A stretch of 64,000 nucleotides of DNA, from positions 1 to 64,000 of IMG/VR virus record IMGVR_UViG_3300021387_001758; one strand, given 5' to 3'. A model generated the notes under the pieces. The model made no database searches. It was not told where the DNA came from and saw nothing but the letters and a program-made list of their open reading frames with translations. Positions 28,108 to 47,004 of the stretch are shown here, piece by piece. This DNA comes from a virus. Lineage: Duplodnaviria > Caudoviricetes. The translations under genes and the position numbers were made by a program. Positions within the stretch are counted from its first letter, which is position 1, and each line of letters begins with the position of its first letter.

Positions 28108-28619
28108 CCATTTTCTTCCAGAGGGAAGAGGGTCGGTTGACCCTCTTCTTTTATTGTAAACCGCGCAACAATAATAATATTATGTCAACCACGAACATAT
28201 GTTCGCGGCAGCCGAATTTCAAAGGCGAACATATGTTCGCGGCCGGCCGTAGTTGTCCACTTTAACACACTAAAGCGATAAAGTGCGCGCCGGCGGGCGT
28301 CCACTTTAACACGTTAAAGTAGTGAAGTGCAGAAATCCGGGCCGCTCGTTAAATTTTTAACAAAGTCAAGTTTTCTGGCAACTATTCCGAAAATTAGTTT
28401 TTTAGGAATAGTTACAACCTCTTCACTATATATAGTATATTTCCCTCTTCAATACCACTATATATAGTATGTTTTGGTCGTGCCAACTATTCCGAAAAAA
28501 TGCTTTATCGGCATAGTTATACCGCCGAATTGTCAGAATATTCCAACTATTCAGAATTGTCAGAATATTCCAGCTTTTCGCTTTAGCGTACTAAAGCGTT
28601 AAAGCGTTGTCAAATTTTA

Positions 28620-37920: not shown

Positions 37921-38506
37921 CATACCACTACAGTTTTCACTGCCACTAAAATGTTTGTGGTCTGGACTTTCTCTTAGCCATAGATTAATCCTTAGGCTCT
38001 CCCTGTAAAGTCTCTACACACGACTATTTGTCTTGCTCGGGATTAGCATATAATGAATATTGTTTACGGTCTTTTCTACCCTTTCCTTTATTCGCGCCTT
38101 TGTAGGTTGCGGTTAAAGAATGACAGTTAGGACACAAAACTATTAAATTATCTTCAGAATTATTTTGATAGTTACCATCAATATGTTCAATCTCTAATGG
38201 TAAAGTATTAGTAAAAGGATTAATTTCACCCCATCCGCAACGCGCACATTTATAATTATATTTCTCAAACAAATATCGCTTCAGATGTTCGGAAATGCCA
38301 TATTTCCCTCTTAATCCAGTTTCTTGACCTTTTTTCCAACGAGTTACCCATTGTTTATGTTGGTAATCCATTTGGCATTGATTGCAACAATATTTAGTTT
38401 GTCTACCAGTTAATTCTTTTCCGCAATTTAAACATTTCATTACTTAGCCTTCCCCGAATTAGGGGAGTGTTCACTTATAAGTTTCCTTATAAGGTTGCAA
38501 TAATTT
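37921..38506 (-). mobile_element. Group I intron with HNH ORF
   Basis: Follows exon U, ends in G; P AATTCGGGGAA, Q AATCCCGAGC, R GTGTAGAGACT, S AAGAGAAAGTCC. Confidence 0.85.
38024..38440 (-). CDS. Intron-encoded HNH endonuclease
   Basis: CARC...LEIEHIDGNYQNNSEDNLIVLCPNCH. Confidence 0.9.
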   Translation of the reverse strand: MKCLNCGKELTGRQTKYCCNQCQMDYQHKQWVTRWKKGQETGLRGKYGISEHLKRYLFEKYNYKCARCGWGEINPFTNTLPLEIEHIDGNYQNNSEDNLIVLCPNCHSLTATYKGANKGKGRKDRKQYSLYANPEQDK

Positions 38507-38547
38507 ACAAATCACTTGCGCTACCAATTGCGCCACACCAGCACACT

Positions 38548-38720
38548 TAAGGGTAAGCTAGCTACTTCCTACCCTTATGGTGGTTATTTTTACTCACTAC
38601 TTGCAGAGTACCTCAACCCTGGTTTTACCGACTCCAGGGGAAACGGGTGGCTGACTTTCGTAAAATAACCAAACTACTTGGGGAGCCACAACCTATCCCT
38701 AGCACAGACAAAAGTCCTAC
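38548..38720 (-). ncRNA. Candidate structured RNA between tRNA-Asn and tRNA-Thr
   Basis: 9-bp closing stem (38582-90/38662-70), inner CCCTGG/CCAGGG stem, extra hairpin 38548-38577. Confidence 0.4.
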
Positions 38721-38727
38721 TGGGTAA

Positions 38728-38802
38728 TGGCGGGAAGGATAGGACTCGAACCTACAACCTCGTGCTTAACAGGCACTTGCTCCACCATTGAGCTACCAAC
38801 CC
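38728..38802 (-). tRNA. trnN: tRNA-Asn(GUU)
   Basis: Cloverleaf, CCA; two U-U mismatches in acceptor stem. Confidence 0.85.
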
Positions 38803-38812
38803 ACGCTCAAGT

Positions 38813-38953
38813 CTATTCAGACTGCGCGCCTTCAAGATTTCTAATCTGTCTCTTCAGTTTCCTCACTACACCAGAACTCTCACCGTTCTTTCCGTTCGAC
38901 TGAAGAAGATGCAGCCTATGTTTAAGACCTTCAATAGATTTTCCCTTTGCCAT
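38813..38953 (-). CDS. Small basic protein (46 aa)
   Basis: Hand-translated MAKGKSIEGLKHRLHLLQSNGKNGESSGVVRKLKRQIRNLEGAQSE; AAGGAG RBS. Confidence 0.55.
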   Translation of the reverse strand: MAKGKSIEGLKHRLHLLQSNGKNGESSGVVRKLKRQIRNLEGAQSE

Positions 38954-38978
38954 AAAATAAACTCCTTTCTTAAAGAGC

Positions 38979-39615
38979 AAACACCCTTTAATAAATATAT
39001 AATTAAGAGTCTTTCAACTTACTAACTACTAACGCCACTATATTTGACTAATGGGGAGACATACCCAAGCAATAAGGAGCGACCCTATTACTATATGCCC
39101 CGCTTGCGCCAAGCCCATAGAGGACTGATTACCTCTACCTTTCAGGTGATATTCGGCAATTTTTTAGAAAAGCAATCTCTCTATCTTCCTTGCTTCATAC
39201 CAAATAAATTAATATGCTTGAGTCTTCGCAGATTTACCCTACTCGGAGTTGACATACAAACGGTTATACACAGATTTCTCTGCTTCAACTGCAAAACGAA
39301 TTATTGGCATTTCTTAGGTTTGCCCCTGGGCAGCCAACCCAAAACCTAACTAAGATTCGGCGTTTGCTATTAACAAGCGCTTCTATTATTTCGCCCGTTC
39401 GTATTCTGTCTTTAGCTCACGTTAGCAGTAGCGCTACACCTTTGGTTTCGGCTTCCAACCTACACGATAGTCGTCACCGCCTATCGCACAGCCCCTTAAC
39501 GAGTATCCCCGTTTCTATGGACTGACCGCCCTTTCGGGTTGTTTCGGTGTACCTCAGCACTGCAATCAGCAACTCTTCACTGAGTTCTTATTTATATATT
39601 TATTAAAGAGTGTTT
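38979..39615 (-). ncRNA. Large (~630 nt) structured ncRNA candidate, possibly GOLLD-like
   Basis: No credible ORF; elevated GC; ~30-bp terminal inverted repeat; own promoter TTGACG(39668-63)-N17-TATAAT(39645-40). Confidence 0.6.
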
Positions 39616-39810
39616 CTCCTTTCTTTACCTTATATAAATATTATACCGAAAATTTGGATTTTCGTCAAATTTTCAGAAATATTTTTCTCTAAAAATTTTA
39701 TCTTGTTTAAAGGCTTTTGTTTATCGGTACGCCACAAGAGCCTTAACTCCCGCCACTACCCTACGTTTACCGTACAGACCCTCTCAAGCGAGCGCCAGTT
39801 AGTGGATTGA

Positions 39811-39885
39811 TGGCTACGGCGGCTGGGTTCGAACCAGCGAATGACGGAGTCAAAGTCCGTTGTGTTACCACTTCACCACGCCGCA
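39811..39885 (-). tRNA. trnQ: tRNA-Gln(UUG)
   Basis: ACGGA-CUUUGAC-UCCGU; CCA. Confidence 0.95.
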
Positions 39886-40030
39886 ATATAAGTGGCATAT
39901 TTTCCCCATATGCCGGAAGGGCGAGTTTAACGGCCCTCGCGCCGCCTATTGATTATGCCCTCAACAGGATAAGAGCTGTGGTGCGCCTGACTGGAGTCGA
40001 ACCAGCACGATCTCACAATCGAGGGATTTT

Positions 40031-40768
40031 CCTGCTACTCCATGTTGCCATGGCCGCGTCACCGCGTTGTAGTCTGGACTTTCTCTTCACCATGCGTTAA
40101 TACGTTTAGGTGCGCGCCGTCAAGTCTCTACACGTTCCTCATTTGAGGCTTCGCTCGGGATTGTCCACGTGGGAGTTTCCCCGAATTTGACGCGATTCAC
40201 ATGGGAGTTTCCAACCCAAGTGCTCTATTTTATATTTTTGGTTTTATATGTATCAGTAAAATAATGACAATTAGGACAAAGTATTTCGAGATTATCTAAA
40301 TGATTATTATTTTTATTGCCATCTTTATGATGTAACTCTAATGGAATAGGATTACCCAACCACTCAGTCAAGCCACAACGGCAACATTTTTTCTCGAAAA
40401 ATCCTTCGGCAAATAATCTATTTCTTAGTTTAAAAGAAGTAATTGCTTGTTCATTATTCAAATATTTTTCTATTGGAGTTCGATATTTTCCAATATTTTT
40501 TGTGTGTGCTTGACCAGTAAAATGAGAAGTATCAAAATTATATTTCTCACACATCTCTTTTATAGTCTTAATAGCAGAACCACCATCTGGATTATATCCT
40601 ACTTTATTAGCTAACTCTCTAAAAGATTCACTCTCAGCACACATTACTGATAACTGTTCAACAGTAAATTTTTCATACTTTTTCATACCTTTTCTCCTCT
40701 TATCTCTCTACTTATAAGTAGAAAAAAGGCAGACTAAATATAAAAAATTAAACCAAACCTATATCGAA
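40031..40768 (-). mobile_element. Group I intron with HNH ORF 5' of the core
   Basis: Ends in G; AAATTCGGGGAA, AATCCCGAGC, GTGTAGAGACT, AAGAGAAAGTCC all lie after the ORF. Confidence 0.85.
40225..40686 (-). CDS. Intron-encoded HNH endonuclease
   Basis: CCRC...LELHHKDGNKNNNHLDNLEILCPNCH. Confidence 0.9.
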   Translation of the reverse strand: MKKYEKFTVEQLSVMCAESESFRELANKVGYNPDGGSAIKTIKEMCEKYNFDTSHFTGQAHTKNIGKYRTPIEKYLNNEQAITSFKLRNRLFAEGFFEKKCCRCGLTEWLGNPIPLELHHKDGNKNNNHLDNLEILCPNCHYFTDTYKTKNIK

Positions 40769-40809
40769 AAGTCCCTTGCGTCTGCCTATTCCGCCACAAG
40801 CGCGCAGTT

Positions 40810-41058
40810 CTATTCATCAAAGAACTTCCAAATCGGATTCACAAAATCATAATCCCGATTAGAAACTCTATAATTGCCAAACAACTTTACCAACTCGTCA
40901 AGCGTTCCACCGATTTTCAAATAATCTTTCATGGCTTCAAAAGCCTTACTCTGCGCGGCGATCTTATTCTTTTCCTTGTCTTTGAACTGCTTTTCTGCAG
41001 CAAGGCAATCCTCAACTGTATCGTACTTCTTTCCGGTAATTTCACTTACAACATACAT
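40810..41058 (-). CDS. Hypothetical protein (start MYVVSEITGKKY)
   Basis: GAGGAG RBS; the longer ORF-track start overlaps an RNA gene. Confidence 0.6.
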   Translation of the reverse strand: MYVVSEITGKKYDTVEDCLAAEKQFKDKEKNKIAAQSKAFEAMKDYLKIGGTLDELVKLFGNYRVSNRDYDFVNPIWKFFDE

Positions 41059-41092
41059 ATTGGTTTTCTCCTCACTAACAAGACAATAATAC

Positions 41093-41173
41093 TGGTGGAG
41101 TCGATGGGAATCGAACCCATGTCCGAAACACTGCACTTTGGCCTTGATGCCCCGTCGAAACCATTCCGACCCC
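41093..41173 (-). ncRNA. ssrA: Minimal tmRNA: tRNA-like domain only (81 nt)
   Basis: GGGGUCG-GAAUGGUUUCGAC 5' end; GAC-AUGGG-UUCGAUU-CCCAU-CGACUCC-ACCA 3' end; G3-U70 pair; no mRNA-like domain. Confidence 0.8.
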
Positions 41174-41254
41174 ATAGAAGAAGGAGCTGAACGCTCCTTT
41201 CTTATATACCATATAGACAATGGTACGTAGGTGGTGAAACCTAAGAAATAAAAA

Positions 41255-41655
41255 ATGGTTTAATTCTGATTCCGTAAGGTGGGTCGCAGTATCCTTCTGC
41301 GACTAAACCAATAGGTTACTTTGCCTTCTTATTTGGTCAAGGTGCGTTTGCCACAAGGCCACATATCAATCAATGAAAGCATAGTCGAACTAACTAAATC
41401 TTATGAGACAATTGCCGGTGGTAGTTTACCTATTAAAATCCATGTTAACGCATCTGCTACTGACCATCTGAGTAGCGCAGGGCTTGACTTACATCGGCTC
41501 AAGCATACCTTGGAGAATTTAAGAACTAATCCTCAACCGCAATTCTCCTTACGATTACGTTCCGTCCGTAGACAACGCTTAGCCAGATTAGTAATTTGCT
41601 GAATTTATATCGTTAGTCAGCGACTCCGTACACGTTTAGGGTCGAGTAAAGACCA
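41255..41655 (-). ncRNA. Large (~400 nt) structured ncRNA candidate, ROOL-like
   Basis: No credible ORF; starts right after tRNA-Met CCA; GUCGCAG/CUGCGAC hairpin; CCAAGGUAUGCU and GUUAACAUGGA resemble ROOL as I recall it (unverified). Confidence 0.5.
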
Positions 41656-41656
41656 A

Positions 41657-41731
41657 TGGTTGCGGAAGTAGGATTCGAACCTACGACTTTTAGGTTATGA
41701 GCCTAAATTGCTACCGCTGCATCATTCCGCC
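41657..41731 (-). tRNA. trnM: tRNA-Met(CAU), initiator-like
   Basis: CAU anticodon; unpaired 1-72 (G-A); only two G-C pairs at the anticodon stem base. Confidence 0.8.
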
Positions 41732-41734
41732 ATA

Positions 41735-42128
41735 AAGGAACTTTGGACGCATCCTTAGTTCCTAGGCTTACTCCGAAGAGATAGGCCTCTATTCTTCATT
41801 TGCTACAACTTCGAGTTCGTTCCACGGATCCTTTCTCTATATTTCCGAAATTCTTGTGGTGATCAAATCCACGGTGAGTATTGTTGTATCGCATCCGTCC
41901 CTTTCGGAGACGCGACCTGTTGCTTCAGGCGACTCTCTCATAGACATTGTTCCGGAACTGCCTATGTTGGATTGTTGTATTTTATTGCAAACGCACTCCC
42001 ACTTTACTCAAGGCTTGTGACTTGCACGGCCTAAACCTCTGTTTAAGCTTGATGGCGTGGTTACGTTTAGCATCGAGAGGGGAGAAAAGGAAAGGAAGTA
42101 AGATTTATCTCCCCTCTCTTAACTTTCT
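41735..42128 (-). ncRNA. Candidate ~390-nt leader or ncRNA
   Basis: Promoter TTGACA(42163-58)-N17-TATAAT(42140-35); no credible ORF; several hairpins. Confidence 0.4.
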
Positions 42129-42173
42129 ATATATATTATAGCAAAGTTTTATAATTTTGTCAAAATTTCTTTC

Positions 42174-42404
42174 TTAGAGTGCGGCCCACTCATTACAAGC
42201 ATCATATCTATCGTCAGCTTGATCTTCCCAAGCGAACCGAATTCTCGCGCGAAGGTCTTCAATGTCCTGTGCGAGTTCACCGATGATCCATTCATCATCT
42301 TCATCTCCACGACCCCTTGCATCCTCAAGTGCAAACTCGAACTCTTCTTCCTTCATTTCAAGTTCCTTCTGGAGCATTATCGGATCTTCATAGTCTCTAT
42401 ACAT
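42174..42404 (-). CDS. Small acidic coiled-coil protein
   Basis: 76 aa with AGAAAGAAGG RBS. Confidence 0.6.
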   Translation of the reverse strand: MYRDYEDPIMLQKELEMKEEEFEFALEDARGRGDEDDEWIIGELAQDIEDLRARIRFAWEDQADDRYDACNEWAAL

Positions 42405-42597
42405 TTATAACCTTCTTTCTTAGTTTAATTTTGAGAGTTGAACGCGGCGTCTCGTTCGGATTAGTGGGAATTGAACCCTTGGCTCTTACCTACCATAAGT
42501 TTTTAACTTCGAGCCTTCTCTTACTTTTTCCTCTCTCTTAACTTTCTATATATATTATATAAGAAAATTATAAATATTTCAAATTATTTTTTATAAA

Positions 42598-42674
42598 TGG
42601 CGACGCTGACGGGACTCGAACCCGTGACCTTCAGCGTGACAGGCTGACATTCTAACCAACTGAACTACAGCGCC
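42598..42674 (-). tRNA. trnD: tRNA-Asp(GUC)
   Basis: Cloverleaf, CCA. Confidence 0.95.
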
Positions 42675-42734
42675 AAATAATGGGAGGGGTCCTACATCTC
42701 CCGCTTTTCCACAGAACAATTCTCTGGCAGGACC

Positions 42735-42808
42735 TGGAGCGGATAACGAGAATCGAACTCGTATTCTCAGCTTGGAAGGCTGACGCTCTACCATTAAACT
42801 ACATCCGC
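42735..42808 (-). tRNA. trnG: tRNA-Gly(UCC)
   Basis: Cloverleaf, CCA. Confidence 0.95.
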
Positions 42809-42817
42809 ATATAAGTT

Positions 42818-42894
42818 TGGTACTGCGACTGAGACTCGAACTCAGAACCTACGGATTAGAAGTCCGTTGCGCTCTCCAATTACGCTACCGCAGC
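42818..42894 (-). tRNA. trnR: tRNA-Arg(UCU)
   Basis: Cloverleaf, CCA. Confidence 0.95.
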
Positions 42895-42897
42895 ATA

Positions 42898-42972
42898 TGG
42901 CATAGGCTCAAGGACTTGAACCTCAATTAGTAGTTTTGGAGACTACCGTGCTACCAATTACACTAAGCCTAC
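42898..42972 (-). tRNA. trnW: tRNA-Trp(CCA)
   Basis: GUAGU-CUCCAAA-ACUAC. Confidence 0.9.
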
Positions 42973-42976
42973 ACAA

Positions 42977-43052
42977 TGGTGGAGAATAGGAGACTCGAAC
43001 TCCTGACCCCCTGCGTGCAAAGCAGGTGCTCTCCCATCTGAGCTAATTCCCC
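42977..43052 (-). tRNA. trnA: tRNA-Ala(UGC)
   Basis: Cloverleaf, G3-U70, CCA. Confidence 0.95.
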
Positions 43053-43058
43053 AAAAAA

Positions 43059-43134
43059 TGGTGCGGGTGACACGACTTGAACGTGCGGCCCCTTAGTCCC
43101 AAACCAAGCGCTCTACCAACTGAGCTACACCCAC
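43059..43134 (-). tRNA. trnP: tRNA-Pro(UGG)
   Basis: Cloverleaf, CCA. Confidence 0.9.
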
Positions 43135-43138
43135 AAAA

Positions 43139-43227
43139 TGGCGGAGGATGTAGGATTCGAACCCACGGGGCTTTCGCCACAACAGATTTCAAGTCTGCGC
43201 CGTTATGACCAACTTCGGTAATCCTCC
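43139..43227 (-). tRNA. trnS: tRNA-Ser(UGA)
   Basis: Long variable arm, CCA. Confidence 0.95.
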
Positions 43228-43230
43228 AAA

Positions 43231-43311
43231 TGGTGGGCAACCAGGGACTCGAACCCTGACCCGAAGACTAGTTCCTAAGACTAGCGCGCCTGCCAATTAC
43301 GCCAGTTGCCC
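43231..43311 (-). tRNA. trnL: tRNA-Leu(UAG)
   Basis: CUAGU-CUUAGGA-ACUAG. Confidence 0.95.
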
Positions 43312-43325
43312 AAATTAATTTTTAA

Positions 43326-43402
43326 TGGTGGGCATGGATGGATTTGAACCATCGACCTTCCGCTTATCAGACGGATGCGCTAACCAACTGCGCTACACGC
43401 CC
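43326..43402 (-). tRNA. trnI: tRNA-Ile(GAU)
   Basis: Cloverleaf, CCA. Confidence 0.95.
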
Positions 43403-43405
43403 ACA

Positions 43406-43480
43406 TGGTAGGGGGAGAAGGAGTTGAACCTTCCTCAAACGCTTATAAGACGCTTAGACTAACCGATGTCCTATCCCCCC
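43406..43480 (-). tRNA. trnI: tRNA-Ile(UAU)
   Basis: Anticodon loop CUUAUAA; CCA. Confidence 0.8.
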
Positions 43481-43490
43481 GTCAGATTTT

Positions 43491-43566
43491 TGGTGCGCCG
43501 CCCGAGACTCGAACTCGGCACGCCGTGATTAAAAGTCACGTGCTCTTCCTGATGAGCTAGCGGCGC
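43491..43566 (-). tRNA. trnK: tRNA-Lys(UUU)
   Basis: Cloverleaf, CCA. Confidence 0.95.
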
Positions 43567-43726
43567 ATAAATTCCCAGACGCTAATCTGAGAATTAAGTT
43601 TAATTTGTTAGCGCAAATTAAACTTTTTCGTGTTATTTCGGGAAACACCGAAAGCTATCTACTTCGTTGTAGCGTCACTTCCAAAACCCGCTAGTACTAA
43701 CTACTACATCTTTTACGATGTAGAAA

Positions 43727-43803
43727 TGGTGACGGTACACGGACTCGAACCGTGACTCTACAGGATGAAAACCTGTTGTGTTGACCTGTTACACTATACC
43801 GCC
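43727..43803 (-). tRNA. trnE: tRNA-Glu(UUC)
   Basis: Cloverleaf, CCA. Confidence 0.95.
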
Positions 43804-43867
43804 ATAACTTTCTTTTTTCATCGTATATATATTATATATAAAATTTTTCAGAAAATCAAATTATAAA

Positions 43868-43954
43868 TGGTGGAGGGAAGTGGATTTGAACCACTGAAGG
43901 CATAGCCAACGGATTTACAGTCCGCCCCTTTTGACCAGACTTAGGTATCCCTCC
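43868..43954 (-). tRNA. trnY: tRNA-Tyr(GUA)
   Basis: Long variable arm, CCA. Confidence 0.95.
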
Positions 43955-43963
43955 TTATTCTAA

Positions 43964-44038
43964 TGGGTGGATGTAACGGTAACGCTCCGTTGTCTCCTGG
44001 GCCACAACCAGGCGCTCTACTTTTGAGCTAACAACCAC
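43964..44038 (-). tRNA. trnH: tRNA-His(GUG), atypical T-loop
   Basis: G-1:C73; T-loop AGCGUUA instead of UUCRANY. Confidence 0.8.
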
Positions 44039-44043
44039 ATAAC

Positions 44044-44119
44044 TGGTGGCTTAGGGTGGAGTCGAACCACCGACGCGCGGATTTTCAGTCCACCGCTCTA
44101 CCTCCTGAGCTACCAAGCC
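44044..44119 (-). tRNA. trnF: tRNA-Phe(GAA)
   Basis: Cloverleaf, CCA. Confidence 0.95.
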
Positions 44120-44123
44120 ACGA

Positions 44124-44199
44124 TGGTGCGCGATACAGGACTTGAACCTGTGACTTTCTGCTTGTAAGGCAGGTACTCTCCCAGCTGAGTTAATCGCGC
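44124..44199 (-). tRNA. trnV: tRNA-Val(UAC)
   Basis: Cloverleaf, CCA. Confidence 0.95.
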
Positions 44200-44202
44200 A
44201 TA

Positions 44203-44277
44203 TGGTACTCCGTGTAGGATTCGAACCCACGTAAACTGCATCCGTAGTGCAGCGCCCATCCTCTAGACCAACGGAGC
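44203..44277 (-). tRNA. trnR: tRNA-Arg(ACG)
   Basis: CUGCA-CUACGGA-UGCAG. Confidence 0.9.
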
Positions 44278-44281
44278 AAAA

Positions 44282-44376
44282 TGGCGGGAAGAGAGGGATT
44301 CGAACCCTCGCGCCGTATCTCTACGACCTAATCGCTTAGCAGGCGATCCTCTTAAGCCAGACTTGAGTATCTCCCC
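44282..44376 (-). tRNA. trnS: tRNA-Ser(GCU)
   Basis: Long variable arm; starts directly after the upstream ORF stop. Confidence 0.95.
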
Positions 44377-44691
44377 TTATTTTCTACGACAACATTTCTC
44401 CCAATAATTTAACCAATCTTCGAGAGTAGGATAGTTAGTATAAATATAACCACTCAAAGCCCAACTTTCGTATTCTCGCTTAGCTTCTTCTTTTGTCCAA
44501 CGCCAGCAATAATCAGAAATATCATATGACTCTGTAATTCGCTTATAGTAGGACGGAGACTGCGCGCCGTCAGAATTTTTATTCATGCGTCTAACTCGTC
44601 TACTTGCAAGCTTTTTATTCTGATGTGTTGAGTTTCTTTTATGGTCATTAACCCAGGGATTTTTCTTATAGCTCCGAGACATTAAACTCAC
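44377..44691 (-). CDS. Small basic protein (MSRSYKKNPW...)
   Basis: 104 aa, Arg/Lys-rich N-terminus. Confidence 0.65.
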   Translation of the reverse strand: MSLMSRSYKKNPWVNDHKRNSTHQNKKLASRRVRRMNKNSDGAQSPSYYKRITESYDISDYCWRWTKEEAKREYESWALSGYIYTNYPTLEDWLNYWEKCCRRK

Positions 44692-46147: not shown

Positions 46148-46519
46148 ATGTCTGATTATGATTTATATGATAAAATAGTGGCTAGAACTCTTCAAGAATT
46201 TATTTGTAAAGGTGTTAATGGCGGAGCTGCTATTAACAACTATACAGAAAGAGAGCATAATAAGTTCTTTATTGAAGTAGGCAAAATGGCTAGTCATATA
46301 ATGAAAATGTCCTTCTATGTCCAGATGGGGTGGTTTTCATTTATTATTTATAAGTTAAGTAACTGGAGATTAATGAAAGGAGTCAAACGCTACCATGAAT
46401 CAAAGGGAATAAAATTAATATCGGTTACAGCATTAACTAATCAAATTAAAGAAGAGTTTAATTTAGAGGATGACACTATTTTCCAAGATATTTATGAGGA
46501 GTATTACAATATCAAATGA
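46148..46519 (+). CDS. Hypothetical protein
   Basis: 123 aa; GAGGAGG RBS; promoter at ~46092-46120. Confidence 0.65.
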   Translation: MSDYDLYDKIVARTLQEFICKGVNGGAAINNYTEREHNKFFIEVGKMASHIMKMSFYVQMGWFSFIIYKLSNWRLMKGVKRYHESKGIKLISVTALTNQIKEEFNLEDDTIFQDIYEEYYNIK

Positions 46520-47004
46520 GTAAATACGAAATGTGGGTTGATGGTTCCACAAAGAATAACGGACAAGAAGACACTTACGGCGGCTGGGGCGTTTATTGCC
46601 TTAAAGATGGAGAGTATGAGGTTTCTTGGAATGGTGGATCTTATGATACTACCAACCAGAGAATGGAACTAACTGCCGCGGTTGAAGCTACAAAGATGTT
46701 TCACAGAAGTAAGGAGAAAGAAGATAAATTAGTTATCTATACCGATAGTGCCTATCTTTATAATTGTTGGAAAGAAAGATGGTATAAAAAATGGGTTGAA
46801 AAGAAATGGCTTAATTCAAAGTCTCAACCTGTAGCTAATCGTGATTTGTGGGAACTATTAATTCCTTTCTTCAAAGATAAATCAATTCGTTTCGTTAAAG
46901 TTAAAGGTCATGCCGATAATGAGGGTAATATTGAAGCTGATCGACTGGCCACGGAAGCAGCAGCAAGAGTGGAGGCTTTTGAGAATGAAAATCGTAGTAA
47001 TTAA
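46516..47004 (+). CDS. rnhA: Ribonuclease HI
   Basis: VDGS, TTNQRMELTA, YTDSAY, VKGHADNEGNIEADRLA. Confidence 0.92.
   Translation: MSKYEMWVDGSTKNNGQEDTYGGWGVYCLKDGEYEVSWNGGSYDTTNQRMELTAAVEATKMFHRSKEKEDKLVIYTDSAYLYNCWKERWYKKWVEKKWLNSKSQPVANRDLWELLIPFFKDKSIRFVKVKGHADNEGNIEADRLATEAAARVEAFENENRSN

Follow-up and report, generated by a model that had tools for sequence, protein, structure and literature searches.

A predicted phage gene for the tRNA-like domain of tmRNA, lacking a tag reading frame, and its numerous relatives in phage genomes

The 64,000-nt stretch of phage DNA analyzed here (the window) carries on its minus strand, at positions 41093-41173, what its sequence indicates to be a real phage gene for the tRNA-like domain (TLD) of tmRNA without a tag reading frame, referred to below as a mini-tmRNA. 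Bacteria rescue ribosomes and tag proteins mainly by trans-translation, a pathway that is also an antibiotic target. The main effect of the mini-tmRNA would be to compete with host tmRNA for SmpB and stalled ribosomes, a reading to which we assign a probability of roughly 0.6. If widespread, phage RNAs that imitate tmRNA in its entry module alone would act as natural modulators of trans-translation and offer a handle on the benefit that phages draw from blocking tagging or getting around it.

Structurally, the gene comprises 81 nt, including an encoded CCA, with all parts on the minus strand. In the acceptor stem, GGGGUCG (41167-41173) pairs with CGACUCC (41097-41103) at seven of seven positions, generating a G3:U70 pair in which G3 is the alanine identity base; the 3′ segment as a whole (41093-41103) continues from U70 through the discriminator A into the CCA. 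The 5′ strand is followed by a stemless D-loop of 13 nt (41154-41166), which ends in UUCGAC and aligns to the tmRNA consensus. Helix 2a (H2a) joins GGGGCAU (41147-41153) to GUGUUUC (41125-41131) via seven pairs, four of them G:U, and is closed by a 15-nt loop (41132-41146), within which an A-rich bulge is followed by a weak H2b stub (GCC paired to UGC, one position being a C:U mismatch). This loop stands in for the pseudoknots, tag frame and H5. A GGAC connector (41121-41124), which agrees with the tmRNA consensus, leads into the T-arm (41104-41120), with a 5-bp stem and the 7-nt loop UUCGAUU. The initial annotation had described most of these elements: the tmRNA-type 5′ end GGGGUCG with its stemless D-loop ending in UUCGAC, the GAC plus canonical T-arm, the G3-U70 pair and the ACCA end are all present, while the H2-like pairing that it gave as GGGGCA/UGUUUC extends to seven pairs and the loop that it put at ~17 nt is shorter by two.

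Just 29 nt separate UUCGAC from GGAC, leaving the mini-tmRNA without pseudoknots PK1-PK4 or replacements for them. UAA, UAG and UGA are absent in all frames, so a terminated tag cannot be supplied, which agrees with the earlier statement that the RNA has no tag reading frame. The single-sequence minimum free energy fold carries no signal (z -0.07) and is uninformative; the structure therefore rests on comparative data.

The Rfam tmRNA model RF00023 matches exactly 41093-41173 with 75.9 bits (E 1e-27 in the 64-kb window, gathering score 47), far above chance. The match is made through the two ends only: the alignment spans model positions 1-374, and 13 nt take the place of the 306 positions in the center. 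An 81-nt tmRNA mimic had been proposed at these very coordinates, together with a search by ARAGORN and Rfam; the Rfam half of that search bears the proposal out, while ARAGORN, run on the window, calls neither a tmRNA or tag nor a tRNA at the site. Our own family covariance model, R1, scores the mini-tmRNA at 64.6 bits. The RNA displays the characters of a tmRNA TLD (7-bp acceptor, G3:U70, discriminator A, CCA, stemless D-loop and T-arm), and the mRNA-like region of a fully functional tmRNA (resume codon, tag frame and stop codon) is absent. It is likewise an unpermuted tmRNA-type TLD of 81 nt without a tag frame, as in the class represented by mycobacteriophage DS6A (~60-85 nt). Judged from sequence, it carries the determinants expected for alanylation and for SmpB and EF-Tu binding. 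An ordinary tRNA(Ala) is ruled out at 41093-41173 by the missing D stem, the 7-bp arm with a 15-nt loop and the silence of ARAGORN; a separate tRNA-Ala gene of the window lies at 42977-43052.

To define the relatives of this RNA, IMG/VR was scanned with a pattern of 21 fixed bases (UUCGAC, 12-42 nt, GGAC and the T-arm core), for which about one match is expected by chance according to our own rough estimate. At least 120 contigs matched, and the matches listed contain 90 distinct sequences, 83 of which have a perfect 7-bp acceptor stem, giving at least 83 distinct relatives from one pattern scan. The initial annotation had called such an RNA rare, a view that these counts contradict; mini-tmRNAs appear, from their sequences, to be common in phages and simply unannotated. 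The acceptor stem, G3:U70 and discriminator A lay outside the search pattern, and among the matches listed G3:U70 is found in 82/83 relatives and discriminator A in 83/83. The listed relatives measure 61-81 nt (mode 79 without CCA), and just 22/83 of them encode CCA; a stricter pattern in which CUCCACCA was required proved too strict for this reason, returning zero matches in IMG/VR. Many relatives are located within or bordering phage tRNA arrays, where ARAGORN calls none of them, and RF00023 at its gathering threshold detects 10 of the 15 relatives tested. Mini-tmRNA genes thus escape ARAGORN and are missing from phage annotations, and in the literature searched no description of the breadth of the family was found. 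A variant T-loop subgroup (L130, L138, L133, L128, L166 and L167; also L129, L135 and L137) has a center near-identical to that of the window RNA and a T-loop without UUCGA (e.g., GGCGGAA or GGCAGUA). This subgroup falls below the Rfam tmRNA cut-off, and a metagenome scan added just two members to it.

The secondary structure of the family is supported by comparison across its members. For 67 different H2a strands, the number of contiguous pairs has a mode of seven within molecules versus zero between molecules, and the T-arm is paired at five of five positions in all 84 sequences, three of these pairs being fixed by the search pattern. Model R1 was built from the IMG/VR relatives with DS6A left out, and the relatives were then realigned to it. 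In the resulting 90-row alignment (A2), which is fitted to R1 and in which some columns, including three T-stem pairs, are fixed by the pattern, 93.6% of cells hold standard pairs versus 40-53% after a shift of the partners by 1-3 columns, and the covariation score reaches 0.625 versus 0.06-0.11 in these shifted controls. Both sides change in 16 of the 22 pairs, and H2a covaries at 7/7. Support extends to four helices of the family, namely the acceptor stem and H2a, the T-arm, and a distal stub of 3 bp that ends in a tetraloop. Within the center of the molecule, H2a is followed by an A-rich bulge (often AAAG) and then by the short stub; in the Rfam consensus structure of tmRNA, these parts have their counterparts in helix 2a, a bulge of 3 nt and the first part of the helix that follows. 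Mini-tmRNAs therefore look like a tmRNA cut cleanly inside helix 2.

The window mini-tmRNA belongs to a loop subgroup, AARGCC-RAAG-UGC, that recurs in 17 IMG/VR stretches (12 new and 5 already among the matches of the pattern scan described above). A mini-tmRNA with this loop is also found in a prophage-like region of a Clostridiaceae metagenome-assembled genome (MAG), which has its own 375-nt tmRNA with the tag ANKPALAAA. Two stretches, of 14 and 8 nt, are identical between the mini-tmRNA and this Clostridiaceae tmRNA: UGGUUUCGACGGGG, formed by the last 10 bases of the D-loop and the first four of H2a, and UUUCGGAC. Together they cover the D-loop end, H2a base and connector of the MAG tmRNA. 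Copying of the loop motif from helix 2 of a bacterial tmRNA was considered but gained no support: no full-length tmRNA carries the motif in a scan of genome contigs, which returned one mini-tmRNA, in the Clostridiaceae MAG, and one chance match. In relation to the standard one-piece tmRNA described by RF00023, the mini-tmRNA has homologous 5′ and 3′ ends and shares its T-arm and ACCA end with the Clostridiaceae molecule, but lacks ~300 nt that hold the pseudoknots, resume codon, tag frame and stop codon.

The closest known system is the TLD-only RNA of mycobacteriophage DS6A (tmRNA Website tmID 11587). In Hudson et al. 2014 the entry reads “Mycobacterium phage DS6A (TLD only)”, and a similar molecule is said to inhibit tmRNA strongly, perhaps by SmpB titration (PMC4131195). 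The 2025 tmRNA database article, citing Mao et al. 2009, again describes inhibition of endogenous tmRNA by the DS6A form in E. coli (PMC11915505). The phage precedent invoked by the initial annotation accordingly exists (PMC4131195, PMC11915505). The same database contains just 9 sequences classed as “Standard, no CDS” among 97,179 (PMC11915505). Applied to the DS6A genome (JN698994.1), R1 gives a single match of 60.4 bits at 28478-28557, in the unannotated gap between gp33 and gp34, with the same architecture (alignment A3). The DS6A TLD-only RNA is unannotated in the GenBank record JN698994.1. As R1 was built without DS6A and nevertheless finds its RNA, the window RNA belongs to the DS6A type, which is a large family. 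The window RNA is a further member of a type that is known but under-annotated.

Both RNAs are phage-encoded, ~80 nt long and without a tag frame, and both combine an acceptor stem with G3:U70, a stemless D-loop, H2a, an A-rich bulge with a short stub, and a T-arm. They differ in phage type and host phylum (Actinomycetota for DS6A, probably Bacillota for the window phage), in gene setting (alone between gp33 and gp34 in DS6A, within a tRNA/ROOL block in the window) and in loop sequence (AAAACC-GCACGC-GG in DS6A, AAGGCC-AAAG-UGC in the window); furthermore, the window RNA passes the Rfam tmRNA gathering threshold, whereas the DS6A RNA falls below it. The window RNA adds a Bacillota-type rumen/gut example placed in a tRNA/ROOL block and leaves the picture based on DS6A unchanged. 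CDS-less organellar tmRNAs are similarly reduced to a TLD without a tag frame and retained under selection (PMC11915505); examples are those of jakobid mitochondria (Jacob et al. 2004) and of Mallomonadaceae plastids, at ~65 bp (PMC11915505). These differ from the mini-tmRNAs in being of reductive origin, in having SmpB in the same cell, in the permuted order of the mitochondrial forms, and in being neither viral nor a second copy added beside a full host tmRNA. Full-length phage tmRNAs (the Bxz1 group, Bacillus phage G, Melnitz, huge phages and Phass-1) are also phage-borne ssrA homologues, but retain the long central region.

The source record spans 78,387 bp (estimated 66% complete, G+C ~35%) and contains tailed-phage genes for terminase, portal, tail and sigma-factor proteins. 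The nearest cultured or named relatives of the portal protein are those of gut phage Phass-1 (28.5% identity), of 134-142-kb Enterococcus phages, and of Brevibacillus, Lactococcus and Bacillus phages; a Bacillota host is therefore likely, and the source is a large siphovirus-like phage. The DNA and RNA runs that contain the stretch are animal gut metagenomes, mostly bovine. No close relative was found in IMG/VR with a 603-aa protein and the portal as queries, and megablast/blastn matches to cultured phages are limited to tRNAs or T-arms. Phass-1 (OQ749652.1), by portal the nearest named relative, is a “code 15 clade” gut phage with a 439-nt tmRNA match at 92142-92580 on the minus strand (77.9 bits) that escapes ARAGORN. 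The ORFs of the window read normally under table 11, and the window has no suppressor tRNA.

The mini-tmRNA lies in an RNA gene block (38728-44376) defined by ARAGORN, Rfam and PHROGs, in which 21 tRNA genes and a ROOL RNA, all on the same minus strand as the mini-tmRNA, are interspersed with HNH genes. The ROOL RNA is full length (38989-39608; RF03087, 305.7 bits, model positions 1-574), and Rfam finds no ROOL near the mini-tmRNAs of 15 other loci. Two HNH homing-endonuclease genes are assigned to the block, at 38024-38440 and 40225-40686, both on the minus strand. An ORF of 82 aa with a GAGGAG ribosome-binding site (40810-41058, minus strand) begins 35 nt past the CCA. Neither this ORF nor the other neighbors of the mini-tmRNA have Pfam or PHROG matches, and there is no evidence of a functional link between the ORF and the mini-tmRNA. 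Upstream, 7 nt from the 5′ end, the sequence can be read as a 7-bp hairpin (41181-41199, minus strand), which is possibly the terminator of an upstream transcript or part of a precursor; one RNA-library contig terminates at 41201.

Alanylation by AlaRS is specified by G3:U70 together with A73, and SmpB and EF-Tu bind to a module made up of the base of helix 2a and the TLD, including the elbow of D-loop and T-loop. The mini-tmRNA would be transcribed with the adjoining tRNA genes, matured by host tRNA-processing enzymes, alanylated by host AlaRS via G3:U70 and A73, and bound by host SmpB and EF-Tu. SmpB genes are absent from the source record and from five mini-carrying phages that are 92-100% complete (111-146 kb), so host factors would be needed. 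Since the mini-tmRNA offers no template, protein tagging is impossible, and it would at most accept a nascent chain once. By competing for SmpB and stalled ribosomes, it would damp host ssrA tagging and normal trans-translation during infection. Competition is suggested by the tmRNA-end homology, the acceptor features kept in the relatives, the helix covariation, the missing stop codon, the lack of a phage SmpB, the D-loop/H2a identity with the Clostridiaceae tmRNA, the position on the same strand in a tRNA block, the in vitro peptidyl transfer described below and the inhibition reported for DS6A. Three observations sit less easily with it: the conserved A-rich bulge and H2b stub would seem to exceed the needs of a bare SmpB decoy, H2a of the window RNA has four G:U pairs and its stub is weak, and one phage carries a mini-tmRNA alongside a 392-nt tmRNA-like gene, which is awkward for blanket inhibition. 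In that complete 123.6-kb phage (G003), the mini-tmRNA is located at 46486-46567 and the longer gene at 77588-77979, directly following a tRNA-Ile; ARAGORN assigns the latter an atypical tag, SPEYRIRLLTNTKW.

A broader proposal, which we advance tentatively and hold to be possible rather than probable, is that mini-tmRNAs form a large, phage-specific, selectively maintained RNA family instead of decayed tmRNAs, with a conserved module of their own (H2a, the A-rich bulge and an H2b stub of 3 bp closed by a tetraloop), and that the SmpB/tmRNA/RNase R axis is the point at which this family works against the host. In that capacity, a mini-tmRNA may blunt tagging and mRNA decay after defense-induced ribosome stalling. 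Were this the case, the published tmRNA database would have missed a common phage strategy.

Inhibition of trans-translation and rescue without degradation are the two functions that the initial annotation had suggested. The same charging and TLD features, all of them conserved, could serve rescue without tagging: the Ala-charged mini-tmRNA would enter stalled ribosomes with host SmpB and take over the nascent chain, after which host factors would release or hydrolyze the peptidyl-RNA, freeing ribosomes and leaving (phage) proteins unmarked for degradation. The placement of the gene among translation-supporting tRNA genes fits such a role, as does a possible need for free ribosomes without degradation of their products, and the coexistence of a mini-tmRNA with the 392-nt tmRNA-like gene would be odd if the former simply shut the pathway down. 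In vitro, peptidyl transfer has been observed with a TLD-only tmRNA as the acceptor (PMC3895274, citing Shimizu and Ueda 2006), and CDS-less mitochondrial and plastid tmRNAs are thought to be still useful on incomplete mRNAs (PMC11915505). On the other hand, no release route is known after transfer without a template and a stop codon, and DS6A, the sole tested example, acted as an inhibitor in the account given in the database article (PMC11915505). We regard rescue of this kind as the main rival to competition, though as rather unlikely.

In another reading, the mini-tmRNA would act outside trans-translation, as a decoy for other host factors that bind tmRNA or tRNA, such as RNase R or defense nucleases. 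In one staphylococcal system, an anti-CRISPR protein is accompanied by t(m)RNA fragments, some with the TLD, and these fragments bind RNase R (PMC11662646). The conserved bulge and stub, which lie beyond the SmpB-binding core, hint at an extra partner; however, no AcrIIIA1-like partner was identified beside the gene, the adjacent 82-aa ORF having no family match, and a decoy of this type is improbable. An origin without function is essentially excluded, whether as an ssrA fragment used as an attachment site, as a pseudogene left by decay of a tmRNA or tRNA-Ala, or as the acceptor-bearing part of a two-piece tmRNA: phages do often carry 3′ ssrA fragments as attP (PMC9004378, PMC10865867) and the permuted-tmRNA model RF04321 matches weakly (23.3 bits, far under its cut-off of 47), but the mini-tmRNA has both its 5′ and its 3′ half, joined without a break in the usual order, every helix of the large family shows compensatory changes, the record lacks a tyrosine integrase, and ARAGORN calls no tRNA at the site.

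Logan contigs from four animal-gut metatranscriptome runs, taken as assembled contigs only, were compared with positions 38500-44500. Among the pieces listed for the four runs, no contig spans the mini-tmRNA; the depth in its bins may stem from T-arm cross-matches, and one contig joins 41119 to 42767. The RNA-library contigs cover the ROOL RNA and two unannotated stretches of this region. Within ROOL, contigs from three bovine-gut metatranscriptome runs match 39221-39580 with 0 differences. The first unannotated stretch, 41201-41694, lies between the mini-tmRNA and tRNA-Met and is matched by RNA contigs of 349-445 nt from three runs of two studies, with 5-20 differences. It has no Rfam match and a fold z of -1.3. 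A single ORF is present, a plus-strand frame of 93 aa that starts with TTG and matches no family, and the RNA could be either a stable non-coding transcript or an mRNA. Further along, a Twister-P1 ribozyme-like element is present at 41990-42067 on the minus strand, where its 40.1 bits (local E 7e-8) fall short of the 67.2-bit cut-off, with most of the conserved core nucleotides kept and a 26-nt insertion in one loop. A perfect promoter of the sigma-70 type (42163-42135) lies upstream of the element, and RNA contigs cover 41794-42048.
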